Sequence record: OR352945.1 | DNA length: 64,000 nt | From: Escherichia phage AV115 | Direction: 5' to 3' (one strand) | In this document: in pieces, positions 33,652-63,809 of the stretch | How the letters are laid out: every line of letters begins with the position of its first letter | How positions within the stretch are numbered: the first letter of the stretch is position 1 | The notes under the pieces: generated by a model | What the model saw: only the letters and a program-made list of their open reading frames with translations | What the model was told of the DNA's origin: nothing | The model's database searches: none | Made by a program: the position numbers and the translations under genes

Positions 33652-33900
33652 TTATTTCAAAGTAATAACAAAATGACGTACTGCTTTACGAGCTGCAGAA
33701 GCCAAAGGCTTAGCATATTTCAGTTCATCTTTTGCTTCCAGTTCAGAAGCCAAAGCTGCCTGGACCGGGTTCAGATGTTTGAAATAACGAAGGATTTCAA
33801 GAGCTTCGGCTTCAACATCAATAGATGCGCCATAGTTTTCATGACCATTATTCCATGCGTTTCGTTGCAGTTCAAGAGCGTGTTGTAATTGTTTAATCAT
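33652..33900 (-). CDS. rIII: rIII lysis-inhibition accessory protein
   Basis: 82 aa, T4 rIII length, position between 30.x cluster and gene 31. Confidence 0.7.
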   Translation of the reverse strand: MIKQLQHALELQRNAWNNGHENYGASIDVEAEALEILRYFKHLNPVQAALASELEAKDELKYAKPLASAARKAVRHFVITLK

Positions 33901-34024
33901 TTTAAATTCTCAATTCGAGATAATATTTAGTAGCCACGTTCGTCTGAATTTCACCTTCTTTCGACAAGTCTCTCAGTTGTAGGCTACCGCTTAGAAGAGT
34001 GTTCTCTTCATATAGTTATTTATA

Positions 34025-34357
34025 TCACTTATAAAGACACGGAATAGCTTTATAGTGGCATGTTACGAATTTCTGTTTAATTTCTTTAGGTTGTTTAAGT
34101 CCCAAAGCCACAAATGGATGTGGAACATTTCGAATTTGTCCAACTGGTAGTGGAGTCAAATCACCGACTTCAACAAAACCTTCAGGAACATCAGGACCTA
34201 CAGAATGAACTACACATAGTTCAGGAACTTCACCTTGAACACGTTTACCAATCACAAGTCCTGATTCGGTAACTTCTTCATCACCTGCTTGAGCGGGTTC
34301 AGAAACCAGAATGACATATTCACCAACAGCACGAATTGGGAGTTGTACTTCAGACAT
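34025..34357 (-). CDS. 31: co-chaperonin (GroES analogue)
   Basis: 110 aa; near-identical to T4 gp31. Confidence 0.92.
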
Positions 34358-34414
34358 CTTATTTCCTTGTTGTTTGACGATAGATTAATAATACCATACT
34401 ATTCGTAAAGCATA

Positions 34415-34723
34415 TTACATAAGAAGCAAACGTTCTACCGGAGTACCATCAACCGAAATTACTTTATCAAGGCGGAAAGAACGCCACTGACCTAACTCGG
34501 TATCGAATGCTCGAACTGATTCACGAGGTTCAGAACGAACTTCTGTTGATGGGTTACTATTTTCATATTTGACTTCAAGTTCGTCGCGGGAAGCAAACAT
34601 CGTACGAACATCACCGTTAGCCTTTTCAAATACAACACAATGAACGCCTACAGACAGAATAGTTTTAATACGTTCACGAAGAACCATAGTTTCTTGTTCA
34701 GTTAAAATCATATTATTCACCAC
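34415..34723 (-). CDS. hypothetical protein
   Basis: 102 aa ORF between cd and gene 31. Confidence 0.45.
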   Translation of the reverse strand: MVNNMILTEQETMVLRERIKTILSVGVHCVVFEKANGDVRTMFASRDELEVKYENSNPSTEVRSEPRESVRAFDTELGQWRSFRLDKVISVDGTPVERLLLM

Positions 34724-35294
34724 AAAAGTTTCGAATTTGTTCCCAATTCAGAGAACGAAGATTATTACGAGAGTACTGAATTACTTCAATACCGGCTTTT
34801 TTTAGAATGTCTGCCCAATTTTCAGGAGATCGGTCATATAATTCTGCATATACAACCTTTTTAATACCTGACTGTGTAATAGCTTTAGTGCAATCAGGAC
34901 ATGGAGAAAGCGTCGTATACAACGTAGCACCTTCAATAGAATTACCTTTACGAGCTGCAAACAAAATTGCATTCAATTCCGCATGGATTTCGTTATTAGC
35001 AGACCATGCACTATGAGCGGCCCGATGTTCTTTAGCCAAAACAAAATTATCCACCCGTCCAAATGCTGTAGTGCCTTCTTTATGCCCAGCAACGATGACC
35101 GGGCTTGGTTTATTCTTCAACCAACCATTTTCGGATGCATGTTCGCAACAGTTTGTACCACCTGAAGGAGAGCCATTATAACCTGTAGAAATAATGCGTC
35201 CATCTTTTTCAATGACGGCGCCAACTTTCCATGAACAACATTTTGATTCTTGAGAAATCAGATAAGCAATCTGAAGATATGTGCTAGCTTTCAT
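34713..35294 (-). CDS. cd: dCMP deaminase
   Basis: 193 aa; HAELNAI and PCPDC zinc-binding motifs. Confidence 0.95.
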   Translation of the reverse strand: MKASTYLQIAYLISQESKCCSWKVGAVIEKDGRIISTGYNGSPSGGTNCCEHASENGWLKNKPSPVIVAGHKEGTTAFGRVDNFVLAKEHRAAHSAWSANNEIHAELNAILFAARKGNSIEGATLYTTLSPCPDCTKAITQSGIKKVVYAELYDRSPENWADILKKAGIEVIQYSRNNLRSLNWEQIRNFCGE

Positions 35295-36286
35295 TATTGA
35301 ACCTTATTAATATAAGTTAACAGCTCTTTAGTTTGTTCCCAACTGATGCACGCATCGGTAATGGAAACGCCATAGGACATATTATCAGAAATTTTTTGAT
35401 TTCCTTCATGTAGGAATGATTCTATCATAATTCCTTTGACCAAATCATTAGCTGCTAAATTTTTACCAATACCAATTTGATTGCTATAATGCCCATCAGC
35501 GTTTGCATGGCTACAGTCAACCATTACATAATGATTCAGACCTACTGCCCTTGCTTTGTTAGAAGCTTCTTGAATATCAGAAGAATGATAGTTCGGGCCG
35601 TTGGTCCCGCCACGCAATACGATATGCGTATTCTGATTACCTTCAGCTTCAACAATGCCTACAGTACCATCGACGTCCATACCCATATACCGATGAGGCC
35701 AGGCGGCACTATACATCGCGTCTGTAGCTACTTTAATAGAACCATTGGTTGCGTTCTTGAAGCCTACGCACATCGGTAGACCTGAAGCAATTTCACGATG
35801 TGTCTGACTTTCAGTCGTACGGGCGCCAATAGCAACCCATGAGAAAATACCAGAAAGATACTTAATCGTGAATGGGTCTAATACTTCAGTTGCTAATGGA
35901 AGTCCCATACGTAGAAGTTTACGACACAATGTTCGTGCAACTATAAGACCGTGGTTCATATCAAAACTTCCGTCAAGATATGGATCATTTACAAGACCTT
36001 TCCAACCTACGGTAGTTCGAGGCTTTTCAAAATAAACGCGCATCACTAACAGAACATTAGGAAGACGAGTTTGAAGTTCAGCCAGACGTTTGCCGTATTC
36101 AACAGCAGCAATAGGGTCATGAATTGAACAAGGACCTACAACAATAAGTTTGCGTGGGTCTTCACCGTTCATAATCGAATTAACTTGTTCGCGATGAGAA
36201 GCCACTTGTGATGCGTAAGCTTCCGACAAAGGAATAATCTCAGCCAGTTCTTTTGGAGAAATAAGTTTTCCGACGACAGGTAACAT
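35294..36286 (-). CDS. 3-deoxy-D-arabino-heptulosonate 7-phosphate (DAHP) synthase, class I
   Basis: 330 aa; full-length similarity to AroG/AroF (GPCSIHD, VYFEKPRTTVGWKGL, IGARTTESQ, KPGxxD motifs); stop overlaps cd start. Confidence 0.88.
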   Translation of the reverse strand: MLPVVGKLISPKELAEIIPLSEAYASQVASHREQVNSIMNGEDPRKLIVVGPCSIHDPIAAVEYGKRLAELQTRLPNVLLVMRVYFEKPRTTVGWKGLVNDPYLDGSFDMNHGLIVARTLCRKLLRMGLPLATEVLDPFTIKYLSGIFSWVAIGARTTESQTHREIASGLPMCVGFKNATNGSIKVATDAMYSAAWPHRYMGMDVDGTVGIVEAEGNQNTHIVLRGGTNGPNYHSSDIQEASNKARAVGLNHYVMVDCSHANADGHYSNQIGIGKNLAANDLVKGIMIESFLHEGNQKISDNMSYGVSITDACISWEQTKELLTYINKVQ

Positions 36287-36406
36287 AACAATCCTTAGGA
36301 GATATAAACAGATTCTGATTCAACAATACCTTTAACCGGATTAGACAGGCTAAGTTGGTAGTGCTCAGATTTATGACCATTCTCGATAGTAATGAGATAG
36401 CTCTCA

Positions 36407-36643
36407 TTATAGTGTTCCATATACTCGAGTTGCTTCAACAAGACCATCACTGCCTAATTTAAGATTAGTAATTTGGTCACCATCTTTAGGATTAACGATT
36501 ATGAGAAAAGAACGTGGAGATTCTTGAATAACTCGTAATGTTGCATCTTGGAAACGTTCAGACACTTTATTGATGAGTGCTTGAGCAAATTCTTTTACTT
36601 TAATCTGAAATTCGTGTACTGTAATTGGGTTTTCACTTAGCAT
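36407..36643 (-). CDS. hypothetical early protein
   Basis: 78 aa; ATG with SD GAGGAA; early promoter at 36672-36701. Confidence 0.45.
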   Translation of the reverse strand: MLSENPITVHEFQIKVKEFAQALINKVSERFQDATLRVIQESPRSFLIIVNPKDGDQITNLKLGSDGLVEATRVYGTL

Positions 36644-36671
36644 TTCTATTTCCTCATTTGTTGGTAGAGTT

Positions 36672-36701
36672 ATAGTATCACAACTCCACCATGTTGTAAA
36701 C
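36672..36701 (-). promoter_or_regulatory. early sigma70-type promoter (operon containing DAHP synthase and cd)
   Basis: GTTTAC-N18-TACTAT(AAC) on minus strand; leader CAACAAATGAGGAAA before ATG 36643. Confidence 0.55.
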
Positions 36702-36703
36702 CA

Positions 36704-36979
36704 TTAAATTGCTTTGCATTCAATTTTTTGTGTACCGAAATTGATATCACATTGGATAACTAAATCGCCGTCAAGATCAAATACCACTATGACGTGTGCA
36801 GACCCAGGGAGAAGAGTAATAGCAATAGAATCTACTTGGTCTGGGAGCAAAGCATTGAGTACATGAGTTAGTTGAGCATGAACTCTGAGTTCGGCTGCAA
36901 TATCAAGCACTTCAAACATATTATTAGCAATAATCTGACTGAAGACTACCTTTACAATTTCAGAATATTTAGGGAACAT
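36704..36979 (-). CDS. hypothetical protein
   Basis: 91 aa ORF. Confidence 0.4.
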   Translation of the reverse strand: MFPKYSEIVKVVFSQIIANNMFEVLDIAAELRVHAQLTHVLNALLPDQVDSIAITLLPGSAHVIVVFDLDGDLVIQCDINFGTQKIECKAI

Positions 36980-36986
36980 AATTACC

Positions 36987-37211
36987 TCAGTGCACAGTAT
37001 TTACTTTAACTCGAACAACAAATCGCTCGGTTGGTTCACCGACGGGAACAAACTCTACATGATATTCACCTTTGTAACGAGTATTCAGATCATTACGAAT
37101 TCCTGCGAGTTTGTTGATTAATGTAGGACTCATATTAAGTCCCACTAGTTTACGAAGCATTTTGTATGCTTCATCTTCGATTTCATGATGTTTATCGTAC
37201 ATAGTTTTCAT
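36987..37211 (-). CDS. hypothetical protein
   Basis: 74 aa ORF. Confidence 0.4.
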   Translation of the reverse strand: MKTMYDKHHEIEDEAYKMLRKLVGLNMSPTLINKLAGIRNDLNTRYKGEYHVEFVPVGEPTERFVVRVKVNTVH

Positions 37212-37382
37212 TTAACCATTCAATTGCCTGGTCGACGTTATCAAATATACCGCCGTCCAAACGTTCTTCACGCTCATAGTCCATCACATCAATACCGAAC
37301 TGTCCATTTACTAAAGGCCAGGCTACAAACAAATATTCTTTATGATGTTCGATGGCCTCAATCACTTCATATAATCGTTTCA

Positions 37383-37383
<1 letters not shown>
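37192..37383 (-). CDS. hypothetical protein
   Basis: 63 aa ORF directly downstream of pseT. Confidence 0.4.
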
Positions 37384-38469
<1,086 letters not shown>

Positions 38470-38470
<1 letters not shown>

Positions 38471-38769
38471 TATTTTATTCCTAAGAAAGTTTCAAGAATA
38501 CGAATGTTATGCTCGCGCCGGTCTTTATTAATTTCAGCAACGTTTTTATTGATTGACGTACTTCTAACGTTTGAAGAAATAAATTTAATCATATGACTTT
38601 TGAGTTGTTGCAAATCCAACCCTTTTTCTTTAGCAGCTTTACGAAGAGCTTTACCTGCTTCATCTAGTGCCTTTGCTGCATCTTTGTCATAATCGACAAG
38701 TGACATTCCACGGCAGATATCAATATACTCATCAGACCGTTTGATGTAATTCTCTAGTAATGTTTTCAT
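38470..38769 (-). CDS. hypothetical protein
   Basis: 99 aa ORF. Confidence 0.4.
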
Positions 38770-38826
38770 TTAGATTTCCTCAATTATCCATAGGAGCATT
38801 ATACTCTGCTCCCGAGAGTTTGTAAA

Positions 38827-39051
38827 CTATTTTACTAAAGATTCAATATACTCATGAAGAGCTTTAGTAGCTACTGCCCACTTATTCTGATATTCATTTT
38901 TCAGATTAGCACGAGACTGAACTAACAAGCGGTCATTAGTCGGAGGCAAAGATTCTAATCGTTGAATCTGGCGCCCATAAATCATAGCCGCCATTTCAGA
39001 TTCATAGATAAGCCCTTTAATGTATTCATGCTGTTCTTTAGTCATTGGCAT
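38827..39051 (-). CDS. hypothetical protein
   Basis: 74 aa ORF. Confidence 0.4.
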   Translation of the reverse strand: MPMTKEQHEYIKGLIYESEMAAMIYGRQIQRLESLPPTNDRLLVQSRANLKNEYQNKWAVATKALHEYIESLVK

Positions 39052-39332
39052 TTTTCCTCTTTTAAACCACTACGATAATAACATAACATAGTCTTCTGGT
39101 CATGTACATATCTTTTTATGTCGTTTAACCAGATACGAAATTCTTGAGAGTCTTCAAATGGCATTCCAACCCATGGATTACCATCAATAACCTTTACTTG
39201 CCATTTCTGGTTATATTCAGCAATAGATTCAGGCCATGGCGGATGTAAAGTTTCTTTAGGGCTTAAGGGCACATCCTGGGCACATCCAGCCAAAATGCCA
39301 ATAGATAATACAACTGCGGTTAATTTAATCAT
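39042..39332 (-). CDS. pseT.2: outer-membrane spanin (lipoprotein)
   Basis: 96 aa; signal peptide with lipobox ILAGC, Pro-rich; overlaps upstream partner. Confidence 0.65.
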   Translation of the reverse strand: MIKLTAVVLSIGILAGCAQDVPLSPKETLHPPWPESIAEYNQKWQVKVIDGNPWVGMPFEDSQEFRIWLNDIKRYVHDQKTMLCYYRSGLKEEKCQ

Positions 39333-39685
39333 TCTGAGAGCTTCCTGAGGTCTTCTGCAAAGGAATCGAAGGACCTGTTGATTTGTTTTTCGACCAATCC
39401 TGGCTTACTTGCCACCACGTTCTTCTTCTTCGAATCCTGACGGAGCTTTTCATTTTCGGCCTTAAGTTGGTCAACTAAAACACGGTTCTTATAAGTCATT
39501 TCTTCGATTGACTGATATTGAACCTTGAAGTCGTCTAATACTTTAGCATTGTTTTTAGCGGTCTCTTTGACAGAAGCTAATTCAGTATTCAACGAATCAA
39601 CTTTGTTGTTTAAGACCACTATTGTTACCGTAGAAACTAGAGCAAAAGCTGCTACTATAGCATAAATCGGATTTACTTTAAGCAT
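39329..39685 (-). CDS. pseT.3: inner-membrane spanin
   Basis: 118 aa; N-terminal TM helix (IYAIVAAFALVSTVTIVVL) then coiled-coil. Confidence 0.65.
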   Translation of the reverse strand: MLKVNPIYAIVAAFALVSTVTIVVLNNKVDSLNTELASVKETAKNNAKVLDDFKVQYQSIEEMTYKNRVLVDQLKAENEKLRQDSKKKNVVASKPGLVEKQINRSFDSFAEDLRKLSE

Positions 39686-40173
39686 GTTTTAATAATCTCA
39701 ATGATTTCATCTCGGGATAAACCATTAATAAGAACGGTTTTCAAACCATCACACTGGACTTTGTATGATTCAAACAATACACACAACTCTTCTGCTGTAT
39801 GATATGGACTTGAAATTCCAAGGCGGTTGAATTTGTCGGTAAGAGGGTCGCAAATGATGTAGAATTTTATACCTGCGATATGTACGTTTGGTTGACTAAT
39901 ATTAATGAACACATTAGCGTCGTATTTAGTCAAATTGTTTTGAAGAAATTCTACCATGGCATTAACTGCTTCCGGCATCGCTTCGCGTTTCTCTTCAGCG
40001 TATCGGGTGGAATACTCTTTTTGTTTTACTTTCTTTTTAAGATTTTTGGCCAGTGTAACACGTAGGTCAGTAAGATAACCAACTGGACGTCCTTTCTTAA
40101 AGACCCGGATTCCGTCAGTTGTATCTCCAAAAGCGGTTACGACCATATCGTTAGTAATCAATTGCATATTCAT
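39673..40173 (-). CDS. alc: Alc-like protein (host transcription elongation inhibitor)
   Basis: Position between rnlA and spanins as T4 alc; start moved from 40236 to ATG 40173 (SD GAGGAG, 166 aa) because early promoter lies inside the longer ORF. Confidence 0.5.
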   Translation of the reverse strand: MNMQLITNDMVVTAFGDTTDGIRVFKKGRPVGYLTDLRVTLAKNLKKKVKQKEYSTRYAEEKREAMPEAVNAMVEFLQNNLTKYDANVFINISQPNVHIAGIKFYIICDPLTDKFNRLGISSPYHTAEELCVLFESYKVQCDGLKTVLINGLSRDEIIEIIKTCLK

Positions 40174-40203
40174 AATTTTCTCCTCTGGTTGTTGATAAAA
40201 GCC

Positions 40204-40233
40204 ATAGTAACACCTTCCTTGGTGTTTGTAAAC
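40204..40233 (-). promoter_or_regulatory. early sigma70-type promoter (alc)
   Basis: GTTTAC-N18-TACTATGGC on minus strand upstream of SD GAGGAG / ATG 40173. Confidence 0.55.
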
Positions 40234-40235
40234 CA

Positions 40236-41369
<1,134 letters not shown>

Positions 41370-41386
41370 TCAGTTAGTTTTTTTAA

Positions 41387-41416
41387 ATTGTACCACAATC
41401 CTTGTGGTGTGTAAAC
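41387..41416 (-). promoter_or_regulatory. putative early promoter (rnlA)
   Basis: GTTTAC -35 with TACAAT 18 nt downstream, ~27 nt before rnlA ATG; overlaps denA 3' end. Confidence 0.4.
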
Positions 41417-41826
41417 TACTTTTTCTTATGTTGGATATTCCAAGGCGGGTTGAACTTTTTGATAAAAAGTGGTTCTTCAAGGTCCATTGTTGCGATGGTC
41501 ATTGAACCAAGTTCGTTGGTGACTGAAAGGTCAAAACATTGGCGGGCCCAGAATTCAACCTTTTTGCCTTGCATTAAGGCATCCAAAATCATAAGTGATT
41601 TTCTTGAATCTGAAGTCTGGTCTTTTCGATTTATGGCTGTTCGATAATAGTTAATGCGTTTCTTTAAATTCTTGGTTTTACCAATATACACAAGTTCGTC
41701 ATCTATAGCAATAGCATATATAACATTTTTCTTATTAGGGGCATCAATGGTTTTAATTGTTGCATCTTCTAATAGCTCCAATTCTATATATTTAATAAAG
41801 GAATATTCGGCGGCAATATCTTTCAT
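41416..41826 (-). CDS. denA: endonuclease II (GIY-YIG)
   Basis: 136 aa, GIY-YIG-like motif (VIYAIAIDDELVYIGKTKNL); T4 denA length and position. Confidence 0.85.
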   Translation of the reverse strand: MKDIAAEYSFIKYIELELLEDATIKTIDAPNKKNVIYAIAIDDELVYIGKTKNLKKRINYYRTAINRKDQTSDSRKSLMILDALMQGKKVEFWARQCFDLSVTNELGSMTIATMDLEEPLFIKKFNPPWNIQHKKK

Positions 41827-41834
41827 AATAAAGT

Positions 41835-41848
41835 GGGACCGAAGTCCC
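41835..41848 (-). terminator. stem-loop between nrdB and denA
   Basis: GGGAC-cgaa-GTCCC immediately upstream of denA start. Confidence 0.4.
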
Positions 41849-41852
41849 GTCC

Positions 41853-42355
41853 TTAGAAATATTTTTTGTATGAATTGATTACATTTTGGTCTACATCATT
41901 ATCAATTTGTGCGACAAGATAAGAACTGATTTCAACTTCCTGAGGAGCTGCTTGAACTAAATCAGAGTTCAGATATTCACGAATCCAAGGATAAGGATGT
42001 TTGGTCGGAGCATCAGTAATTGGACACGGCAAACCACACTGTTTCATACGAGACACAGTCAAGTAATCAACAAAAGCACACATACTCTGTGTATTGATAC
42101 CTGGACATGTACCGTCTTTAAAGAGGTGTGCAGCCCATTCCTTCTCTTGACTATTTACTTCCATAAAAATGTCAACTGCTTCTTGTTCACATTCTTTAGC
42201 AATTTGAACCCACTCATCACCATCAGTACCGGATTGAAGTTGACGGATAATGTACTGAGTACCCTTGAGATGGAGTTGTTCGTCACGAGCAATGAACTTC
42301 ATAATCTTTGCATTGCCTTCCATAATTTCCATATTCTTATGGAAATTAAATGTAC
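41853..42355 (-). CDS. nrdB: ribonucleotide reductase small subunit, exon 2
   Basis: C-terminal NrdB (MEGNAKI..., ARDE..H iron ligands); exon start inferred at 42355 to restore conserved FAC(T)F junction. Confidence 0.8.
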
Positions 42356-42947
42356 CGTTATGTTCGATTGAGCTCGCTAATTCTCAACCCGTTCTCTTAT
42401 GAACTGCTGCATATTACTATGCAGACCAGACTATATCACAATCCCGGAGGGATTCTCCCCATTTCGAGTCGCTTGACCCTACGTCCGAAGACTAGTCGTT
42501 GAACCTTGCTTTGCAATTGTCGCCGTGCCATCGTTTATATGTCGATGGTGATAAATCTTTCTTTTCACAATATGGACAATTCAATTGAATTCTATTTGGA
42601 TTTAATTTGCATCTGTCATTATGTTTTAGATAAAACCCAGGACCTTTACCAATGTGACCGCAGAAATCACATGTGATTTCTTTTTGTGCAGGATGGGTTC
42701 CGTTCTTAACCATTTCTAATGTTTTTGCTGATGTTCTTCCATCAGAATCTTTAGGTATAGGCCCGTTAGCATCCATCCAAATTTTTCTATAATTCAATTG
42801 TGCATCCTCTTAAAAGTATAATCATATTTATTTTATAATATACTAATTAAAGGTGCAAGCAAAACCTTGGCTGCTAGTTTTCCTATAAAGGACTTTCCAG
42901 CAATTAAAGGAGTTTTCGATAAACGTTACCGTTTAAAGGCGCATTTT
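42356..42947 (-). mobile_element. group I self-splicing intron in nrdB
   Basis: ~592 nt interrupting conserved NrdB sequence between YVSFA and MEGNAKI; 5' exon ends in U, intron ends in G; boundaries approximate. Confidence 0.75.
42492..42797 (-). pseudogene. I-TevIII-like homing endonuclease remnant (intron ORF)
   Basis: 101 aa ORF inside intron with TTG start; CxxC...CxxC zinc-finger-like region but no HNH catalytic motif. Confidence 0.5.
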
Positions 42948-43623
42948 ACGCAAAAGATACATAAAAACGAATAGCTTCCAATGCATTGATGACATGCAAA
43001 CAAAGATAAAGAGATTTCATTAGGTCTCGTTTAGCTTCGGTCTCTTGTTTAATAGCTCGGTTTAAACGAAGGTCGGCATCAGGAGATTCTTTAGCTTGTT
43101 CTACAAATTCTTTAGCATTTTCCCAATTACGAGTCTTGACTAGAACATCATCATAATATTTACCTATTGATTCAGCTCGTTTCATGATTGCTTCGTCTAA
43201 TACAATCTCATCAAATACTTTGGATGGATCGGTATAAAGATTTCGCATAATATGAGTATACGAACGAGAGTGAATAGTTTCACTGAATGTCCATGTTGCA
43301 ACCCACGTATCTAATGAAGGGTCGGAAAGCAGTGCCATAAGTACCGCAGATGGGGCCCTGCCTTGGATAGAATCTAATAATGATTGATACTTAAGGTTGT
43401 TTGTAAAGATGTCCTGTTGGAACTGAGGAAGCTTATTGAACTGGGCCGAATCCAGCATCAGGTTTACTTCTTCTGGTCGCCAGAAAAACGACAATTGCTT
43501 TTCAATAAGTTCTTCAAAAACTTTATGTCGCTGAATATCATAACGTGCGAGGCCAAGACCAGAACCAAAGAACATTGGTTCATTCAAAACATCGACTTGT
43601 TGTGTGTTAAAAACTGTACTCAT
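42948..43623 (-). CDS. nrdB: ribonucleotide reductase small subunit, exon 1
   Basis: N-terminal NrdB (...EAIRFYVSFA); in-frame stop lies within intron. Confidence 0.85.
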
Positions 43624-43678
43624 TATATTTTCTCACTTAGTTATTAACTCATCCATGAGTAAATTATAATCAAAAGTC

Positions 43679-45943
43679 TTAAAGCTTACAAGCAGAACAA
43701 TCTTCAGCTTTAGGTGTTTCTAATTCATAGTCATCTGTACCTGACCCATCACGAGTGTTATGATAGTAGAGGTTTTTTCCGCCAAAGTACCAGAAGTAAA
43801 GCAGATCGTCAAGCATTACTGACATTGGCACTTTACCTTTCTCAAATACTGCAGGGTCATAGTAAGTATTAGCAGAAGCAGATTGGCACACCCATTTCAA
43901 CATGATAGCAACTTGGGTCAAATAAGGTTTATTACCTTTCTTAGCAAGTTTCCACGCGTAGTCGTAAAGACTCATGTTATGTTCTATATTAGGAACAACC
44001 TGTCGGAAGTTGCCTTCTTTAGATTCTTTAATACTTACAGGTCCACGAGGTGGTTCTATACCATTTGTGCTATTTGAGACTTGACTGCTTGACTCACAAG
44101 GCATGAGTGCAGACAACGTTGAGTTACGAATTCCATGTTCTTTGAGTTCAGCTCGAAGTTCTTCCCAGTCACAGACATAGTTCGGGGCTGCGATTTGGTC
44201 AATCTTTTTATTGTACCAGTCGATAGGTAATTCGCCTCTAGACCATTTAGTGTCTGAATAATACTCACAAGGTCCTTTTTCTTTGGCGAGTTTGATTGAT
44301 GCTTTGATAAGGCCATATTGCAATCTCTCGAACAATTCATGGGTCAAATCGTTAGCGTCTTCATATGAAGCAAAGTTAGAAGCTAACCATGCAGCATAGT
44401 TCGTCACACCAACACCGAGATTTCGACGCTTTTTAGCTTTTAAAGCTTCTGGAACCGGATAATCTTGATAGTCTAACAGGTTATCAAGTGCACGTACTTG
44501 TACTTCAGCAAGTTCATTAATTTTATCTTGGTCTTGCCAATCAAATTTATCTAATACAAAAGCAGATAATGTGCATAAACCAATTTCAGCATCAGGACCA
44601 TTCACATCATTAGTTGGAATAGCGATTTCACAACATAAGTTACTCTGACGAATTGGAGCTTTTTCACGAATAAACGGAGTGTAGTTATTCGTGTTATCAA
44701 CAAACTGTGGATAAATTCGAGCAGTGCCAGAACGTTCAGTCATGAACAATTCAAAGAGTTCTAGTGCTTTGATTCTTTTCTTTCTGATTGTTGGGTCTTT
44801 TTCAGCTTTCTCATAAAGCTCACGGAATTTATCTTGATCTTCAAAGAACGAGTAGTATAGTTCACCTGACATTTCGTGAGGGCTAAATAAAGTAATATAA
44901 TCATTTTTACCAAGGCGTTCCATCATAAGGTCATTAATCTGAATTCCGTAGTCCATATGTCGAATACGGTTTTCATCCACGCCTTTGTTATTTTTCAGAA
45001 CTAATAGGTTCTCTACTTCTAAGTGCCACATCGGATAATACGCTGTAGCAGCACCACCACGAATACCACCTTGAGAACAAGATTTTACTGCAGTTTGGAA
45101 ATGTTTCCAGAATGGAATAACACCTGTATGTCGAACTTCACCCGTACCGATCTTAGAACCTTCTGCACGAAGCATACCAACGTTGATACCGATACCAGCT
45201 CGTTTAGAAATATATTCAATAATTGATGCTGAAGTTTTGTTAATAGATTTTAACGAATCACCTGCTTCAATAACTACACAACTAGAGAACTGGCGAGTTG
45301 GAGTACGAGCACCTGCCATAATTGGGGTTGGCAATGAAACTTGATGAGTAGAAACGGCATCATAAAAACGAATAATATGTTTCAAACGGTCATGAGTTTC
45401 GTCTTGGTGTAAGGCCATGCCAATAGCCATGATAGCAAACTGGGGAGTTTCATAAATCTTCCCAGTTGTTTTATCTTTAACTAGATATTTTTCTTTAAGC
45501 TGCATAGCACCAGCATAAGTCAGGTCAAAGTCTCGTTCATGTTTAATCTGTGAATCGAGATAAATGATTTCTTCTGCTGAATATTGAGACAACAGCTCAG
45601 GGTCATATTTGCCTTCATTAACACAGTAAGAAATATGGTCTATAAAAGCAGGCGGTTCAAACTGCCCATATACATCTTTACGAAGTGCAAACATTAGCCC
45701 TTTGGCGGCGACATACTGATAATCAGGTTCTTCGACAGAAATCAAGTTAGCTGCAACTTTAATACAAATCTTCTGAATATCTTTGGTGCTCATCCCGTCG
45801 ACAAGATGGGTCTTAATTTCTTCATACAATTCGTATGGGTCGATTTGTGTTCCTTCACACTGCCAAGTTAATACTTGAATAATTTTCTGTGCATCAAAAT
45901 TTTGGGATACACCTGAATTTTTCACTACTTTAAAATTATACAT
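43679..45943 (-). CDS. nrdA: ribonucleotide reductase large subunit
   Basis: 754 aa; close to T4 NrdA; C-terminal CxxC. Confidence 0.97.
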   Translation of the reverse strand: MYNFKVVKNSGVSQNFDAQKIIQVLTWQCEGTQIDPYELYEEIKTHLVDGMSTKDIQKICIKVAANLISVEEPDYQYVAAKGLMFALRKDVYGQFEPPAFIDHISYCVNEGKYDPELLSQYSAEEIIYLDSQIKHERDFDLTYAGAMQLKEKYLVKDKTTGKIYETPQFAIMAIGMALHQDETHDRLKHIIRFYDAVSTHQVSLPTPIMAGARTPTRQFSSCVVIEAGDSLKSINKTSASIIEYISKRAGIGINVGMLRAEGSKIGTGEVRHTGVIPFWKHFQTAVKSCSQGGIRGGAATAYYPMWHLEVENLLVLKNNKGVDENRIRHMDYGIQINDLMMERLGKNDYITLFSPHEMSGELYYSFFEDQDKFRELYEKAEKDPTIRKKRIKALELFELFMTERSGTARIYPQFVDNTNNYTPFIREKAPIRQSNLCCEIAIPTNDVNGPDAEIGLCTLSAFVLDKFDWQDQDKINELAEVQVRALDNLLDYQDYPVPEALKAKKRRNLGVGVTNYAAWLASNFASYEDANDLTHELFERLQYGLIKASIKLAKEKGPCEYYSDTKWSRGELPIDWYNKKIDQIAAPNYVCDWEELRAELKEHGIRNSTLSALMPCESSSQVSNSTNGIEPPRGPVSIKESKEGNFRQVVPNIEHNMSLYDYAWKLAKKGNKPYLTQVAIMLKWVCQSASANTYYDPAVFEKGKVPMSVMLDDLLYFWYFGGKNLYYHNTRDGSGTDDYELETPKAEDCSACKL

Positions 45944-46571
45944 AATAATTCCATGTTGGATAATTTGATGATTTTAGACGGCGTCTAACCGTTTGGGTGC
46001 TCATAGATAAAATTATTGACGCTTCATTTAATGTATCATATATTACGTCGTTTATAATTACTTTCTTTGCAAATGGATTCTTAGCTCCTATCATAGCGTT
46101 AGAAATAGCTTGCTTAGTTGATTCTTTTAATGGGACTCCTTTAGAAATTTTTGTTTTAATTTTTATATTGTATTGTCCGCGTTTTTTACCTAATAAAGAA
46201 TTTCGTATCTTTTCTTTAGTCTCTTCAGATTTAACATGTCCTAGTTTGGAACGAGATATTTTATCTTTTGTTTTTTGGTCTAATTTTCGCCCTTTAAGCA
46301 AATCAACCATTTTTGCTCTAGCCCATCCAAATTCTTTATTATTTCTAGAACTCATTAAATTAACCGCGGTTGCTAAACCTAAATTGTTCGGATATATTTT
46401 TAATAAAAGAAGATGAGCCAAATAATGTTCTGAATATGTTAATTTAACTAGATTGTATGACTCATTGGTGCCACCTAAACATTTTGGGATTATATGATGC
46501 CATTCACCATCGATATCTTCAAAATTTCTTTCTTTATTTACTAAGTTTTTATATATTTTTAAATAATCCAT
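45936..46571 (-). CDS. HNH homing endonuclease (MobE-like)
   Basis: HNH motif EWHHIIPKCLGG...NLV; repeated K-rich NUMOD-like segments; track start GTG 46583, ATG at 46571; 3' end overlaps nrdA start. Confidence 0.8.
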   Translation of the reverse strand: MDYLKIYKNLVNKERNFEDIDGEWHHIIPKCLGGTNESYNLVKLTYSEHYLAHLLLLKIYPNNLGLATAVNLMSSRNNKEFGWARAKMVDLLKGRKLDQKTKDKISRSKLGHVKSEETKEKIRNSLLGKKRGQYNIKIKTKISKGVPLKESTKQAISNAMIGAKNPFAKKVIINDVIYDTLNEASIILSMSTQTVRRRLKSSNYPTWNYYV

Positions 46572-46646
46572 AGTATAATCCACTTTGTAGTATCAACGGG
46601 ATAGTATTTATCCCGTTAATTTATTATACACTTTTAAACTGAAGCG

Positions 46647-46901
46647 TTAATTATCCTCAGCAATAATTTCTTCGTATTCTTTAGGTGTCAAGACCGTGAT
46701 ATTGAAATAAACCAACGGTTCTTTTTCCACACCGTAACCACCACAGAATTCACGATATTCATAAATTCGTTCATGTGAATAACAAATGAATCGTTCACCT
46801 TTAACTATGATTTCACTATTCGGTGAAGGGATATCTAGTTCGGTAGGATTTTTCATTTCAAAAATTGTGGTGCCATATGAATTAATAAAACGTAAAATCA
46901 T
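46647..46901 (-). CDS. hypothetical protein
   Basis: 84 aa; ATG 1 nt after td stop. Confidence 0.4.
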   Translation of the reverse strand: MILRFINSYGTTIFEMKNPTELDIPSPNSEIIVKGERFICYSHERIYEYREFCGGYGVEKEPLVYFNITVLTPKEYEEIIAEDN

Positions 46902-46902
46902 T

Positions 46903-47214
46903 TTATACCGCCATTTTAGCTTTGATAGCTGGATGTGATTCGTAATTTTTAAGAACGAAATCAGAATGTGTCATCGTTCCGGTAACCCAGTCCATTTGGA
47001 TTTTTGTAGGCCAATTCTCAAAATTACTAGGCCAATTAATTTCAAGAGAACATAACTCTTTAGGTTCATGACGAAGAACTTCTTTGCATTGTTCTACATG
47101 ATTGCTGTAGATATGCGTGTTGCCGCCTGAGAACACTAAATCACCTGGGATAAGGTTACACATCTTCGCTACAATATGTGTCAAGGCAGCGTACGAGGCG
47201 ATGTTGAACGGTAG
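46903..47214 (-). CDS. td: thymidylate synthase, exon 2
   Basis: C-terminal TS (LPFNIASYA...); track ATG at 47215-47217 is the last 3 nt of the intron (cataATG|CTACCG). Confidence 0.93.
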   Translation of the reverse strand, partial: LPFNIASYAALTHIVAKMCNLIPGDLVFSGGNTHIYSNHVEQCKEVLRHEPKELCSLEINWPSNFENWPTKIQMDWVTGTMTHSDFVLKNYESHPAIKAKMAV

Positions 47215-48230
47215 CATTATGTTCAGATAAGGTCGTTAATCTTATCCCGGAATTATATCCAGCTGCATGTCACCATGCAGAGCAGACTATATCTCCAACT
47301 TGTTAAAGCAAGTTGTCTATCGTTTCGAGTCACTTGACCCTACTCCCTAAAGGGATAGTCGTTAGGCATTTATGTAGAACCAATTCCACTTATCAGATTT
47401 TACACGGTAAGTAACTAATCCTGATGAAATTTCAAAATGTCTAGCCGCATCGGCTGCACATTCAAAAATAATCCCATCGCATGAAATCTTTTTGATGTTA
47501 GCTGGCTTTTTGCCTTTCATCTTTTCAGATAGTTTAGTTTTAGTTTTTTCTGAATGTTTGTGATTAAAGAACGGGTTATTTTCACCTGAACGTTTTCGGC
47601 ACTTTCCACAAGTATCGGCCGAAGATGGTATGCGAACACCGCATTTACAAAACTTGTGGTTTTCTGGATTCCATCGGCCATTTTTACTTCCGTGTTTACC
47701 ATAAAGAGCTTTCCGACCATCAGGACCAAGCTTAAGCATCTTAGCTTTAACAGTTTCAGCTCGTTTCTTAGCAATTTCTTCTTTTAATGGATGATTTGAA
47801 AGCACATCGCCAAAAGACGCATCAGCAATATTATATCCATTAATTTTAGAATTTAGCTCTTTAATCCAAAAATTTTCTCGTTCAATAATCAAATCTTTCT
47901 CATATGGAATTTCTTCCAGTATAGAGCATTCAAAAACATTACCATGTTTATTAAAAGACCTTTGAAATTTTATAGAAGAGTGAACACCGTTTTCAAGGTC
48001 TTTAAAATGTCTCTTCCATCTTTTCTCAAAATCTTTAGCACTTCCAACATACACTTTACCGTTTAAAGTGTTTTTAATCTGATAAATTCCGCTTTTCATA
48101 AACACCTCTTTTTATATAGAAGTATTTATTAAAGGGTAGTCCTACAATTTAGCACGGGATTGTCTACTAGAGAGGTCCCCCGTTTAGATAGATTACAAGT
48201 ATAAGTCACCTTATACCTAGGCCTAAATTA
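47215..48230 (-). mobile_element. group I self-splicing intron in td
   Basis: 1016 nt; 5' and 3' intron sequences as I recall the T4 td intron; exon 1 ends ...GGT. Confidence 0.93.
47362..48099 (-). CDS. I-TevI: intron-encoded GIY-YIG homing endonuclease I-TevI
   Basis: 245 aa from ATG 48099 (track GTG start at 48105); MKSGIYQIKNT...; GIY-YIG plus zinc finger. Confidence 0.97.
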   Translation of the reverse strand: MKSGIYQIKNTLNGKVYVGSAKDFEKRWKRHFKDLENGVHSSIKFQRSFNKHGNVFECSILEEIPYEKDLIIERENFWIKELNSKINGYNIADASFGDVLSNHPLKEEIAKKRAETVKAKMLKLGPDGRKALYGKHGSKNGRWNPENHKFCKCGVRIPSSADTCGKCRKRSGENNPFFNHKHSEKTKTKLSEKMKGKKPANIKKISCDGIIFECAADAARHFEISSGLVTYRVKSDKWNWFYINA

Positions 48231-48779
48231 ACCTAAGAAAACATCTACACTGCGTTGATACCATTGTAAATCAAGATGACCATTACGCACATTGAACTGA
48301 TAGAACATATGGCAAGGAGGAAGAGCCATTTGATTTATTTCAGCCGGATTCCAGGCAGAAACAATTTGACGACGATCAGTTGGTAATTTTTTAATACGGT
48401 CGATTGTTTCAACTAATTGGTCTACACCACCAAAATCACGCCATTGCTTACCATAAATAGGACCAAGTTCGCCGCTATGATATCCAAGGTCTTTTGCCTG
48501 ATTTTCATAGTTGTCGTCCCAAATAGTTTTACCTTGAATAAGACTACCATGAGTACGAATACGCAAATCATTAACATTGGTAGAACCAGACATGAACCAC
48601 AGTAACTCGGCAATACAAGCTTTCCATGCTAATTTCTTAGTTGTTACTGCAGGAAATCCTTTAGTAAGGTCCCAACGTAATTTAGTTCCGAACAGGGCAA
48701 TAGTGCCGGTACCTGTACGGTCGTCTGTTTCGTAGCCATTTTCTAAGATATCTTTAATCAGGTATTGGTATTGTTTCAT
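48231..48779 (-). CDS. td: thymidylate synthase, exon 1
   Basis: N-terminal TS with active-site region PPCH; 183 codons. Confidence 0.95.
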
Positions 48780-49363
48780 TTATATACGCTCTCAGTAATT
48801 TCGGTGAGTTCATCGATTCTGTAGTAATGAGATTCTACCATAGAACGTTGAAGCATAATATCTTGGACGAAATCTTTATCAAGTTGAACATCGGAATTAA
48901 CACGACATTTCTTAATGATTTTAGTCATCACGATTTCATCGGCATAAGGCAGTGCTTGTTTTAATAGAGCAGGGCCACCAATAATAGATACATCAACATG
49001 TTCAGTAGAAAGTTTAAACGGTACGTCAGTTGCAGGGCTAAACAGGTTAATTTCACCACCCGTTACCAAGGTAATAAATTCTGCTTGGGTGATATAGAAC
49101 CGTGCAAGTTCGTTGGTTTTGGTCCTAGGCAGTTTTCTGGCCATATCAGTGACAACCACATGAGTACGATCCTGGAGTAGACGAGGTAATGATGCAAAAG
49201 TCTTAGCACCCATAACCATTACAGTGTTTTTAGTGCGAGCAACAAAGTTACTCATATCTTGTTTGATATGCTTCCATGGAAGTCCATCACCTAATCCAAA
49301 AGCATATTCCAGTTTATCATCAACTGTTTTAGTCGGAGCGCATGCGAATACTAATTTAAGCAT
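48776..49363 (-). CDS. frd: dihydrofolate reductase
   Basis: 195 aa; stop overlaps td start; T4 Frd length and position. Confidence 0.9.
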   Translation of the reverse strand: MLKLVFACAPTKTVDDKLEYAFGLGDGLPWKHIKQDMSNFVARTKNTVMVMGAKTFASLPRLLQDRTHVVVTDMARKLPRTKTNELARFYITQAEFITLVTGGEINLFSPATDVPFKLSTEHVDVSIIGGPALLKQALPYADEIVMTKIIKKCRVNSDVQLDKDFVQDIMLQRSMVESHYYRIDELTEITESVYK

Positions 49364-49366
49364 TTT

Positions 49367-49615
49367 TTATTTCCTCAGATTTTTCTTAACAACTTTCCAA
49401 TCAGCTTTAAACGATTCAACATCAGAGTGGTGAATCCAGAATCCTGCACTTTCACCATCTTCGTAGAGTGGACATCCATCGCATTCTTCGTTCCAACCCA
49501 TTTCACGTAAAGCTTCTTCAGCTTGTTCAAGGAGTTCAGCGTCTTTACCAACGATGTTGAAGTACCATTTACCTCTAACTTCAGAATCTTTGATGCTCTG
49601 GCGTTGCAATCTCAT
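49367..49615 (-). CDS. hypothetical protein
   Basis: Track ORF starts with a non-ATG codon at 49678; first ATG (MRLQRQ...) at 49615. Confidence 0.4.
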   Translation of the reverse strand: MRLQRQSIKDSEVRGKWYFNIVGKDAELLEQAEEALREMGWNEECDGCPLYEDGESAGFWIHHSDVESFKADWKVVKKNLRK

Positions 49616-49677
49616 TTTATTCTCCTTCACTTTTGATTTGATAGGGCTACTATAACATAACCCTATCTGATTATACA

Positions 49678-50070
49678 CTACTTTTTAAAAGTTTTTTGCA
49701 AAAGTTTGATGATTTCGTCGACGTTGGTTTCATCTACGATACAATGGATTTTTGTTACACCTAAAGTTATACCTTCGTTAGTAGGTTGAGGCTTTACTAA
49801 ATCTACTTCAATAAAGTATTTGAACTCGTCAGGATAAATCTCGAAATAAGTTTCAATTTCACCACCGGCAGAACATACAGTACCGTCTTCCATAGTTACA
49901 CTTACTACGTTTGACGTATCGCTATCATAATCAGGTTCCATTCCGTTTACAACAAAACTAGGCCCATGGAGTTCAATCAATTTTAACATCTTAGCGTTAT
50001 TGTGTGGTGCTTCTTGAACAAAGTCGTCTTTAAATAAAGGGTTAATGATATAAGATTTTCCGATTTCCAT
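49678..50070 (-). CDS. hypothetical early protein
   Basis: 130 aa; SD GAGGAA and early promoter upstream. Confidence 0.5.
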   Translation of the reverse strand: MEIGKSYIINPLFKDDFVQEAPHNNAKMLKLIELHGPSFVVNGMEPDYDSDTSNVVSVTMEDGTVCSAGGEIETYFEIYPDEFKYFIEVDLVKPQPTNEGITLGVTKIHCIVDETNVDEIIKLLQKTFKK

Positions 50071-50099
50071 TTTGATTTCCTCATGTTGTTGATAGGTCT

Positions 50100-50128
50100 A
50101 TACTAACACATCCAGGTAAGAAGTAAAC
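50100..50128 (-). promoter_or_regulatory. early sigma70-type promoter
   Basis: GTTTAC-N17-TAGTATAGAC on minus strand, preceded by hairpin 50160-50177; leader CAACAACATGAGGAAA. Confidence 0.6.
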
Positions 50129-50159
50129 AACTTTTTCGGCAATTTACAGATACTCAAAA

Positions 50160-50177
50160 GGGAGACCGAAGTCTCCC
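50160..50177 (-). terminator. stem-loop GGGAGACCGAAGTCTCCC (copy 2), after gene 32
   Basis: Identical 18-nt hairpin, T-run on minus strand, followed by early promoter. Confidence 0.6.
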
Positions 50178-50183
50178 AATTTA

Positions 50184-51083
50184 TTATAGACCAGCTAACA
50201 GGTCATCGAGGTCACCATCGTCAGAAGACGAGGAACTCATGAAGTCATCTTCAGTTTTTGCAGAACCAAAGGCTTCCATGTCTTTATCAAAATCGTCAAG
50301 GTCAGAAGCAACTTTATCTGCAACAGAAGCTGCTGCGGCTGCTGCACCACCAAGAGCGGCAGTACCAAGAACTTGATTAAATTTAGTATTCAATTCTTCA
50401 AACGATTTGAACTTATCTTTAGAAGTCATTTCAGAAAGGTCGACCATTTGTTCGAACAATTCTTTCTGGAAAGATTCATCATCAATGTTTGGAATCGCAG
50501 ATTGATTCAGGAATTTAGATTCGTCGTAGTTACTGAAACCAGAAACCTGTTTAACTTTCAGCACAAAGTTAGCACCTTCCCACGGGCAAGTTACATCAAC
50601 AGGAGTTTCACCCATTTCAGTATCGACTGCAATCATTGCATTGATTTTGTCCCAAATCTTTTTACCGAAACGATATTTGAATACTTTACCTTCATTATCT
50701 GGAGCTTGAGGGTCTTTAACAACCAGAATATTAGCCCAATAAGAAGTTTTACGTTTCAGTTGAGAATATTCAGTTTTGTTGGTATTGTACAGGTCATTTT
50801 TACTAATGTACTGACATACAGGACAAGAGTCATAATCGCCGTGTGTAGATGAACAGGTTTCAATATACCATTTACCATTTTTCTTGAACCCGTGGTTAAC
50901 AAGAATTGTAAACGGAAGTGCGTCATCTGTTTTTGCCGGCAGGAAACGAATTACCGCTTGACCATTACCGGATGCATCGAGTTTCAGCTTCCATTCACCT
51001 TTATCTTCTGAAGAGAAACCTTTGTTACCATTCAGTTTAGCCATCTGAGCTGCGAGGTCTGCGGTACTTTTACGTTTAAACAT
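50184..51083 (-). CDS. 32: single-stranded DNA-binding protein
   Basis: 299 aa; near-identical to T4 gp32 (zinc site, acidic C-terminal tail). Confidence 0.97.
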
Positions 51084-51160
51084 TTTATTTGCCTTTATTT
51101 AGATTATTAATTAAATTTTACAGTTGGTTGCTACGACACTTATACCTCGTAGCTGGTATG
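51084..51160 (-). promoter_or_regulatory. gene 32 5' leader (putative autoregulatory translational operator)
   Basis: Long A/U-rich leader with repeated UUAAA/UAAA elements upstream of weak SD AAAGG. Confidence 0.45.
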
Positions 51161-51163
51161 ATT

Positions 51164-51171
51164 TATTTATA
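51164..51171 (-). promoter_or_regulatory. late promoter TATAAATA (gene 32)
   Basis: Plus TATTTATA ~80 nt upstream of gene 32 start. Confidence 0.55.
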
Positions 51172-59885: not shown

Positions 59886-62800
59886 ATGGCTACATTAAAA
59901 CAGATACAATTTAAAAGAAGCAAAGTAGCAGGAGTTAATCCTACTGCAGCACAATTAGCCGAAGGCGAATTAGCGATAAACTTAAAAGATCGAACTCTTT
60001 TTACTAAAGATGACCTCGGTAATATTATTAGCCTAGGCTTTGCTAAGGGTGGGGATATTAACGGTAATGTAACTCAAACTGGCGATTATTTACAAAACGG
60101 CACGTATAATCTCAATGGAAATCAGTTTGTTTACGCAGGAAAATACATTGAATTTTTACCTAAAACCACTGGAAATGGCGCTTGGGCTAACCAACATTCG
60201 AATAAAGCCCCTATCTTTACAGATTTAAGTTCAACTACTTCTGTTTCAGAATACCATCCACTGATTAAACAACGTTATAAAGATGGAACTTTTTCTGCTG
60301 GTACATTAGTAAACGAAGGTAGTTTTAAATTCCATTATATTGATGAAACCGGGACTTCAAAATACTGGACTTTTAATCGAAACGGTAATTTTCAAGTTGA
60401 TTCCGGAAGTTTATTAGTATCTAATGGATATTTAGTTACTCAAAGTAATATTGAAACTAAAGCTGGTTCTTTAATTGGTCCTAAAGTTATTACCAAAAAT
60501 ATCAATGTGAGTACTAAATCTTGGGACACTAATATTGATACTGCATATGATTTAGTTTCATTACCGACTTGGCACTATACTCCAACCGAAACAGATTTGG
60601 ATACTAATGGTATAAACTACCTTCGTAAATTCCGCGGACATGTTTCTTCTGCTATTTTCCATGAAGTTGCTGATGCTCGTTCAGGTAAACCACAGAATAT
60701 TTCGTATTGGACGGGACGTAATGCTGAAGTTTATCAATGGTCTTATACCACAGACGGGCGTATGTCTGTTGCTAATTCGATAGGTATAGGTCTTGCTGAT
60801 GTTGGTGACCAAGGACGTTATCCATTGGTTTCGTTTGGTAAAGGTATTGCAATTGGTGACAATGATACTGGTATTAAATGGGTTCGTGACGGCGTTATTG
60901 ATTTGATTGCTAACGGTGTTTCGACCGGTACAATAAACAGTACTGGTGTTAATAGTACAAAGAAATTAACAGTTGGGTATAGCCGTGATTCTGGATCTAC
61001 TTGGGATTATCCGAATACCAACCAGGCAATGTTCAGCGCTAGAACAGAAGTTGATGGTAATAATAACGGTGATGGTCAAACTCACATTGGTTATAGTTCT
61101 AATGCTAAGATGTATCATTATTTCCGTGGCGCTGGCCGCATGGCCATCAGCATGGGTGAAGGTCTTATTGTCGAACCAGGAATTCTTGATATTAAAACCG
61201 GTTCAAATTCGTTAAATTTGCGTGCTGATGGTACCATCGCTTCTGTTCAAACGTTAAAACTTAATAATGGATTATATTTTAATGGTGATGGAACTAATGC
61301 TTCTCTAATTTTTAAAGCAGCTTCAGGTATTGATGGTACTAAGCAAATTTTGTGGGAAGGCGGTACTCGTGCAGGTCAGAACAAAAGTTATGTGACCGTG
61401 AAAGCATGGGGTAACTCATTTAATGCTACTGGTGATAAAGCTCGAGAAACCGTATTTGAGGTTTCTGATGGCCAAGGTTATTATTTCTATTCTCAACGCG
61501 TAGCTCCGACCGGTTCTGAAACTACAGGCCCTGTTGTAACTCAGTTCAATGGACAGGTTAATGCTAGAGGAAGCTTAATAACCGACGGAAGTCTTAGAGT
61601 TAACGGATTAAGCACTCTAGTTGGCAACGTTACAATGAATAATGGATTGTTTGTTCAAGGCGGTTCTTCTATTACTGGACAAGTTAAAATTGGTGGAACA
61701 GCTGATGCATTAAGAATTTGGAATGCTGAATACGGTGCTATTTTCCGTCGTTCTGAAGATAAGCTTTATATTATTCCAACTCCGCAGAATGCTGGTGAAT
61801 CAGGTGGTATTTCTAATTTACGTCCGTTCTATATTGCATTAAGTAATGGTAAAGTTTCTATGGATCATGATGTAGATATCGGCGGCGGCAGATTTAAAGT
61901 AGAAGCTGCTGGAACTACGGCTGGTCAACGCATAACAGTAAATATGGCATCAGATGCTATTAGAATAAATGCTCCAACACAAGAGTCTTCTAACTTCATT
62001 CAAGGACGTAAAGCAGATGTTCCGAAATGGTATTTAGGTATTGGCGACGGCGGCAACGTCGTTCGTATGCACAGTTACACATATTCACATGGTATTGCAT
62101 TAAACTCTGATTCTGTCGATATTACTAAACCTCTTAAAGTCGGAAATGCCCAACTAGGAACCGATGGCAATATCACGGGCGGTTCAGGAAACTTTGCTAA
62201 CTTGAATACAACTTTAAACCGTAAAGTGAATTCTGGTTTTATTACTTATGGAGCAACTGCAGGTTGGTACAAGTTTGCAACAGTAACAATGCCTCAAGCT
62301 ACATCAACCGTTTCAATTACAGTCACTGGCGGAAATGGATCTAATTCTGGATCATTTAATCAGTGCGCAATTTCTGAAATTGTTCTTCGTACAGGAAACA
62401 ATACTCCTAAAGGATTAAATGCTGTTCTATATAGAAGAGGACTAAATTCATTTAGAGATATTGCTTGGGTTAATACATCTGGCGATACATATGACATTTA
62501 TGTCAATATGGGAACATATGCTAATCAGTTAATATTCAATTACAGTTCTGTTGATAATGCAACAGTTCAAATAATTGGCGCATTTAGCTCAGCTCAAAGT
62601 CCTGTTGATACATTACCGGAAACAAATGTTAAAGGACAGGTAGCAGATGTATTGACTAACTTAGTTGATTCAGGAAAAACAAAGCGTTTTGTTGCTGAAT
62701 CTGAAATAGCTGTTAATAATCAAACTGGATTACGTATTACGAGTAATGGTGATAAATCTGGTTCAAATTCAGTATTATTTAGAAATGACGGTGGAAGCTT

Positions 62801-63779: not shown

Positions 63780-63780
63780 A

Positions 63781-63798
63781 AGAGGGCTTCGGCCCTCT
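63781..63798 (+). terminator. stem-loop between genes 37 and 38
   Basis: AGAGGGC-ttcg-GCCCTCT immediately after gene 37 stop, before gene 38 SD. Confidence 0.45.
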
Positions 63799-63809
63799 AA
63801 GGATTTTTA

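Follow-up and report, generated by a model that had tools for sequence, protein, structure and literature searches.

In the model for lambda Rz and Rz1, complexes that span the periplasm accumulate within the murein mesh, are freed by endolysin, and fuse the inner membrane (IM) with the outer membrane (OM) (PMC6139136). A lambda Rz-am Rz1-am lysogen regains lysis when supplied with the T4 genes pseT.3 and pseT.2 (Kongari et al. 2018, PMC6139136), and lambda Rz/Rz1 and their T4 homologues are interchangeable in function (PMC6139136). An alpha1/short linker/alpha2 layout has been published for T4 PseT.3, and both C87 and C98 of T4 PseT.2 are essential for lysis, which is abolished in cysteine point mutants (PMC6139136). 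In T4, these genes lie away from t and e. Of the two T4 families, that of the i-spanin has 40 members and that of the o-spanin 47; RB69 appears in each, in the "separated" class (PMC6139136). The u-spanin gp11 of phage T1 likewise carries an outer-membrane lipoprotein signal and links both membranes, but there one chain carries both the lipobox, at its N terminus, and the transmembrane segment, at its C terminus.

Here, we analyze a stretch of 64,000 nucleotides from Escherichia phage AV115 (OR352945.1; "the window") and describe two adjacent genes that almost certainly encode the two-component spanin of an RB69-like (Mosigvirus) T4-type phage. Nothing of kind sets the pair apart from PseT.3/PseT.2 of T4. 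T4-type spanin pairs are already known from the literature and from database annotation, and this one is ordinary.

Organization of the spanin locus

The features of the locus, all on the minus strand, are as follows.

39329-39685 (-): pseT.3 homologue, i-spanin, 118 aa, ATG start (ORF; PHROG 739; identity to T4 and RB69 PseT.3)
39042-39332 (-): pseT.2 homologue, o-spanin, 96-aa precursor, ATG start (ORF; PHROG 812; identity to T4 and RB69 PseT.2)
39329-39350 (-): pseT.3/pseT.2 junction, with Shine-Dalgarno-like AGGAAG and ATGA overlap (sequence)
39673-39685 (-): 13-nt overlap of the alc end and the pseT.3 start (ORF coordinates)
40204-40232 (-): sigma-70-like match TTTACA-17-TACTAT in the rnlA-alc spacer (consensus scan, 9/12)

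The upstream neighbor of the i-spanin gene is alc (Pfam PF17527, 2.5e-42), and rnlA (RNA ligase 1, 374 aa) lies beyond it. The spanin genes follow alc directly in a single co-oriented block, an arrangement common to RB69, AV118, and T4. Downstream of pseT.2 are the 74-aa ORF pseT.1 (PHROG 2347), ORFs of 99 and 63 aa, and then pseT (299 aa). The initial annotation had put the pair between pseT and alc, and that position is correct, but the pair abuts alc and not pseT, from which it is separated by three small ORFs (pseT.1 and two more). The order rnlA-alc-pseT.3-pseT.2-pseT.1 is the same in T4, where pseT.1 alone fills the interval before pseT.

The stop codon of pseT.3 and the start codon of pseT.2 have 4 nt in common, ATGA (39329-39332), as they do in T4, and the AGGAAG motif lies 8 nt upstream of the pseT.2 ATG, within the end of pseT.3. 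The ATGA overlap suggests that translation of pseT.2 may be coupled to that of pseT.3. The encoded proteins, 118 and 96 aa, compare with 117 and 99 aa in T4. Both ORFs exist as initially described, but the 96-aa ORF, then called overlapping, shares just those 4 nt with its neighbor. The two genes are adjacent on one strand, as expected of a two-component spanin, and their class is "separated," as in T4 (PMC6139136), not embedded or overlapped.

We note that the mechanical alc ORF (39673-40236, minus strand) is 187 aa long, while its Pfam and PHROG matches begin at residue 22 and alc is annotated as 164 to 166 aa in RB69 and AV118. The true alc start is probably the ATG at about 40173, which has GAGGAG before it, and a start there would separate alc from rnlA by about 63 nt.

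The i-spanin

Transmembrane segments and lipoprotein signals were called by hydropathy and by the published lipobox consensus (PMC6139136). The 118-aa protein has one hydrophobic stretch, residues 7 to 25 (IYAIVAAFALVSTVTIVVL), with a Kyte-Doolittle 19-residue mean of 2.56, and a Kyte-Doolittle scan of all 118 aa found no second hydrophobic segment. The remaining 92 residues are hydrophilic and charged (18 K+R, 16 D+E). By hydropathy, then, the protein has the single N-terminal transmembrane segment of an i-spanin, and we infer an orientation in which the bulk of the chain is periplasmic, that is, a type II inner-membrane protein.

Heptad a/d positions in residues 27 to 92 are 68% hydrophobic, a value reached in 24 of 5000 shuffles of the same residues. 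An AlphaFold2 single-sequence model (mean pLDDT, 84.9) consists of a helix at residues 6 to 88, a break at 89 to 95 (VVASKPG), and a helix at 96 to 117, in agreement with the alpha1/linker/alpha2 layout of T4 PseT.3 (PMC6139136). The heptad test and the model thus both predict the helical, coiled-coil-prone periplasmic domain of an i-spanin, and the earlier description of this ORF as an N-terminal transmembrane helix followed by a coiled coil is borne out by residues 7 to 25, by the heptads, and by the modeled helices. The protein contains no cysteine.

The o-spanin

The N terminus of the 96-aa protein, MIKLTAVVLSIGILAGC, has K3 in the n-region and a hydrophobic, uncharged h-region, followed by the lipobox LAGC with Cys17 and with Ala at +2. 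The published consensus is [LVI][ASTVI][GAS]C, without Asp, an inner-membrane retention residue, at +2 (PMC6139136). The signal peptidase II signal expected of an o-spanin is therefore present in the sequence, as proposed initially (a signal peptide with lipobox ILAGC). Cys17 is predicted to be lipidated, and Ala at +2 would be compatible with sorting to the outer membrane.

We then asked how often such a signal occurs in the window. To pass the filter, a frame had to have a consensus lipobox within residues 1 to 35, a hydrophobic stretch free of charge ahead of its Cys, and a basic residue among residues 1 to 8. Both strands of the whole 64-kb window were screened, with 1245 start-to-stop frames (40 aa or longer), and the o-spanin was the sole frame to pass. 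We conclude that its lipoprotein signal is not a chance match, because it is unique among so many frames. The same filter on the same 1245 frames found no second o-spanin or lipoprotein candidate and no u-spanin candidate in the window, and no lambda-like lipobox frame embedded in the i-spanin gene.

The mature form would be 80 aa long and would include a linker that contains prolines and a conserved core; its other two cysteines are Cys84 and Cys95. Its 80 residues include 7 prolines (8.7% overall), 5 of which fall within the first 20 mature residues. Thus, the mature region was rightly called Pro rich for its first 20 or so residues but not over its whole length. The AlphaFold2 single-sequence model was poor (pLDDT, 50.8) and was read for the order of secondary structure only, which is predicted strands and a helix.

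Family membership

Both genes belong to the spanin families defined by T4. A 1.5-kb stretch of DNA spanning the locus matches Escherichia phage AV118 at 100% identity and RB69 (Mosigvirus) at 98.3%, and 150 phage records cover at least 80% of this stretch. The RB69 counterparts are pseT.3 and pseT.2, both labeled "Rz-like spanin" in RefSeq, and AV118 is annotated with "spanin Rz" and "outer membrane lipoprotein Rz1." The i-spanin matches PHROG 739 over residues 1 to 117 (5.4e-34) and the o-spanin matches PHROG 812 (6.3e-43), both families being "Rz-like spanin" in the lysis category. The i-spanin is 43 to 49% identical to T4 PseT.3 (full length) and 99% identical to RB69 PseT.3, and the o-spanin is 70% identical to T4 PseT.2 (full length) and 97% identical to its RB69 counterpart. 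Tblastn of the i-spanin against T4-group phages gave E values of 1e-22 to 2e-24, and homologues of the i-spanin are present in 980 phage records. The i-spanin is accordingly homologous to the T4 PseT.3 family (PHROG 739) over its full length, and the o-spanin falls in the T4 PseT.2 family (PHROG 812) with its two C-terminal cysteines, since Cys84 and Cys95 align with Cys87 and Cys98 of T4. The match to T4 pseT.3/pseT.2 that was first proposed is upheld by the PHROG matches, the end-to-end T4 alignments, the annotation of the RB69-like locus, and the published T4 complementation.

Searches of both proteins against Pfam and NCBIfam returned nothing for the o-spanin and, with the i-spanin, only coiled-coil noise below threshold, and a PDB sequence search with both found no relative and no solved structure. 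Family membership therefore rests on the PHROGs and on the published spanin families.

The comparison with T4 extends to architecture. The N-terminal transmembrane segment with alpha1/alpha2, the lipobox Cys17, the two C-terminal cysteines, and an i-spanin free of cysteine are the same in both phages; the i-spanin transmembrane segment and alpha1 are strongly diverged, and the o-spanin linker is 3 residues shorter here. Lambda Rz/Rz1 have the same design, in which a type II inner-membrane protein whose periplasmic helices form coiled coils is paired with a small outer-membrane lipoprotein, but sequence similarity to the lambda family is undetectable save for a weak match of the i-spanin to PHROG 214 (5.5e-07). 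The lambda genes are embedded, whereas those here are adjacent and stand outside a lysis cassette with holin and endolysin. The o-spanin is twice the length of Rz1, with predicted strands and a helix where Rz1 is an unstructured penta-proline peptide, and in contrast to lambda, the disulfide-forming cysteines are all in the o-spanin. With no Pfam spanin match, a weak PHROG 214 match, no embedded frame, and 8.7% Pro, the proteins fall outside the lambda Rz/Rz1 family. By analogy, the pair would work like Rz/Rz1, yet it is not a member of the Rz/Rz1 sequence family. Finally, unlike T1 gp11, the 96-aa protein has no C-terminal hydrophobic segment and is accompanied by a separate i-spanin.

Conservation across Tevenvirinae

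Phages of six further genera were compared: Dhakavirus JS10, Gaprivervirus VR26, Jiaodavirus (Klebsiella), Moonvirus (Citrobacter), Karamvirus (Enterobacter), and Winklervirus CHI14 (Serratia). The order rnlA-alc-i-spanin-o-spanin was found in all 8 Tevenvirinae genera compared, and the 4-nt ATGA/GTGA junction, with an AGGAG-type motif before it, in 8/8 phages. In all 8 genera, the lipobox cysteine of the o-spanin is Cys17 and is followed by a small residue at +2. Two further cysteines stand at matching positions toward its C terminus, so that all three are invariant, and cysteine is absent from the i-spanin. The o-spanin core is highly conserved (WVGMPF..SQEFRIWLND..RY..D....CYYR..L.E..C). 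The i-spanin is variable in its transmembrane segment and alpha1 and invariant in its C-terminal KPxLVEKQxNxSF. Moreover, pairwise dN/dS between the window genes and those of the seven other genera was 0.29 to 0.58 for the i-spanin and 0.13 to 0.33 for the o-spanin. Both spanin genes are real and under purifying selection.

Expression and position relative to other lysis genes

The T4 late-promoter motif TATAAATA is enriched in the whole window (18 found versus 7.3 expected), but the minus strand has no copy from 34017 to 51164, which leaves the pair with none within 11 kb upstream. Lacking a late promoter is unusual for lysis genes; T4 has the same arrangement. The sigma-70-like match at 40204-40232 is a weak candidate for an early promoter of alc-pseT.3-pseT.2-pseT.1. 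Sigma-70 sites in the region are no commoner than in shuffled sequence (14 versus 15.6 expected), so the one before alc is no more than a candidate. Terminator-like matches in the region were at chance level. The spanin genes are probably carried on early or middle transcripts together with alc, and transcription at that time fits a complex that does no harm before the wall is gone.

The initial annotation also held that the holin and endolysin lie outside the window, far from the spanins, and the searches agree: the best E value in the window was 0.21 by tblastn with RB69 T and 0.51 with T4 lysozyme (the query having been confirmed against the PDB), and the window stops 190 nt into gene 38 (63811-64000). 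The gene order in RB69 is 37-38-t, which would put the holin gene t about 1 kb past the window end, some 25 kb away from the spanin pair. One other lysis-related gene, the lysis-inhibition accessory gene rIII, does fall within the window (33652-33900, minus strand; 82 aa; PHROG 1457, 3.8e-43), at a distance of about 5 kb from the pair.

A second, near-consensus sigma-70 match (TTTACA-17-TATAAT, 11/12) lies at 38798-38826 on the minus strand, just past the end of pseT.1 and ahead of the 99-aa ORF, and may serve the pseT-proximal genes as an early promoter.

Proposed function

We take the AV115 pair to act as the T4 and lambda spanins do because all of the sequence features needed by the model are present and conserved; the transfer of function from T4 is made at 43 to 49% i-spanin identity. 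By this analogy with its T4 orthologues, the pair would disrupt the outer membrane and complement lambda Rz/Rz1. The 118-aa protein would insert in the inner membrane via its N-terminal helix, with its long coiled-coil-prone helix and short C-terminal helix projecting into the periplasm. There, the periplasmic domains of the two proteins would bind to one another; the probable contacts are the invariant C-terminal segment on the i-spanin side and the conserved core on the o-spanin side. The complexes would thread through the peptidoglycan. The two C-terminal cysteines of the o-spanin would, as in T4, be expected to form the intermolecular disulfides needed by the complex. The complexes would stay inert while the murein mesh keeps them apart. 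Once holin T releases endolysin E and the wall is degraded, they would cluster, undergo a conformational change, and fuse the inner membrane with the outer, and the last barrier to virion release would be gone.

Could one or both ORFs instead be chance frames or decayed genes, with the transmembrane segment and lipobox a coincidence? They are small (96 and 118 aa), and neither has an above-threshold match in Pfam or NCBIfam. Chance frames, however, would not be expected to give PHROG E values of 5e-34 and 6e-43 or i-spanin homologues in 980 phage records, nor decayed genes a dN/dS well below 1 with three cysteines and a C-terminal motif invariant, and the lipoprotein signal is unique in the window. 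We regard such a coincidence as next to impossible, and the conservation of the sequences already refutes it.

What the pair chiefly does in T4-type phages is a different matter. Its main role might be that of an early envelope-spanning complex, in superinfection exclusion, in stabilizing the envelope during lysis inhibition, or in sensing superinfecting phage, and lambda complementation might be a side effect. The genes sit in an early/middle minus-strand block beside alc, rnlA, and pseT, far from t and e, with a sigma-70-like site upstream of alc and with no TATAAATA on the minus strand from 34017 to 51164, all of which would suit such a role. Early synthesis, however, fits the spanin model because the complexes are inert until the wall is degraded. 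Moreover, the T4 pair fully replaces lambda Rz/Rz1 and its cysteine mutants abolish lysis (PMC6139136), every feature needed for a spanin is conserved in 8 genera, and we found no evidence for another role. We therefore consider a main role other than lysis very improbable and favor the two-component spanin. A milder form, in which the spanin acts in lysis but its complexes are assembled minutes after infection and have a second, prelysis role besides, is suggested by the missing late promoter and the early/middle unit behind alc, and we give it a slim chance. If true, the complexes might brace or mark the envelope during lysis inhibition or affect the entry of superinfecting phage DNA.

The locus is a standard T4-type spanin pair in an RB69-like phage, placed away from holin and endolysin as in T4, and its importance hardly extends past correct annotation. 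Because several close deposited genomes still label both genes "hypothetical protein," the assignment is of use when annotation is transferred. Given that no T4-type spanin structure has been solved, the family is a reasonable structural target, although that is not specific to the window.

Other features of the window

Several genes outside the spanin locus deserve mention. A class I DAHP synthase of the AroF/G/H type (330 aa; 35294-36286, minus strand) is inserted between cd (34713-35294) and cd.2, with matches to Pfam PF00793 (252 bits), TIGR00034 (428 bits), and PHROG 5045. RB69 has no gene at that place, and homologues occur in 212 phage records. Many Mosigvirus and other T4-type phages are known to carry this auxiliary metabolic gene.

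The nrdB gene is split (41853-43623, minus strand) into an N-terminal part at 42946-43623 and a C-terminal part at 41853-42332. Between the parts are a 101-aa endonuclease-like ORF (42492-42797; PHROG 12324) and a sub-threshold group I intron match (42407-42644; RF00028; 35.9 bits versus 50; E, 2.4e-7); at gathering thresholds, an Rfam scan of the whole window returned nothing. RB69 nrdB is uninterrupted, and AV118 is annotated with a homing endonuclease at the nrdB split. In the nrdA/td region, an I-TevI-like GIY-YIG homing endonuclease is present in full (47362-48105, minus strand), with GIY-YIG, zinc-finger, NUMOD3, and DNA-binding domains, and a second ORF (45936-46583, minus strand) has just the NUMOD3 and I-TevI DNA-binding domains.

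Finally, the distal tail-fiber gene 37 (1297 aa) and the start of gene 38 (59886-64000, plus strand) have no close full-length match in the phage collection. Their best matches are 82 to 91% identical with partial cover, compared with a spanin region 100% identical to AV118, and from these sequences the host-range module looks mosaic.
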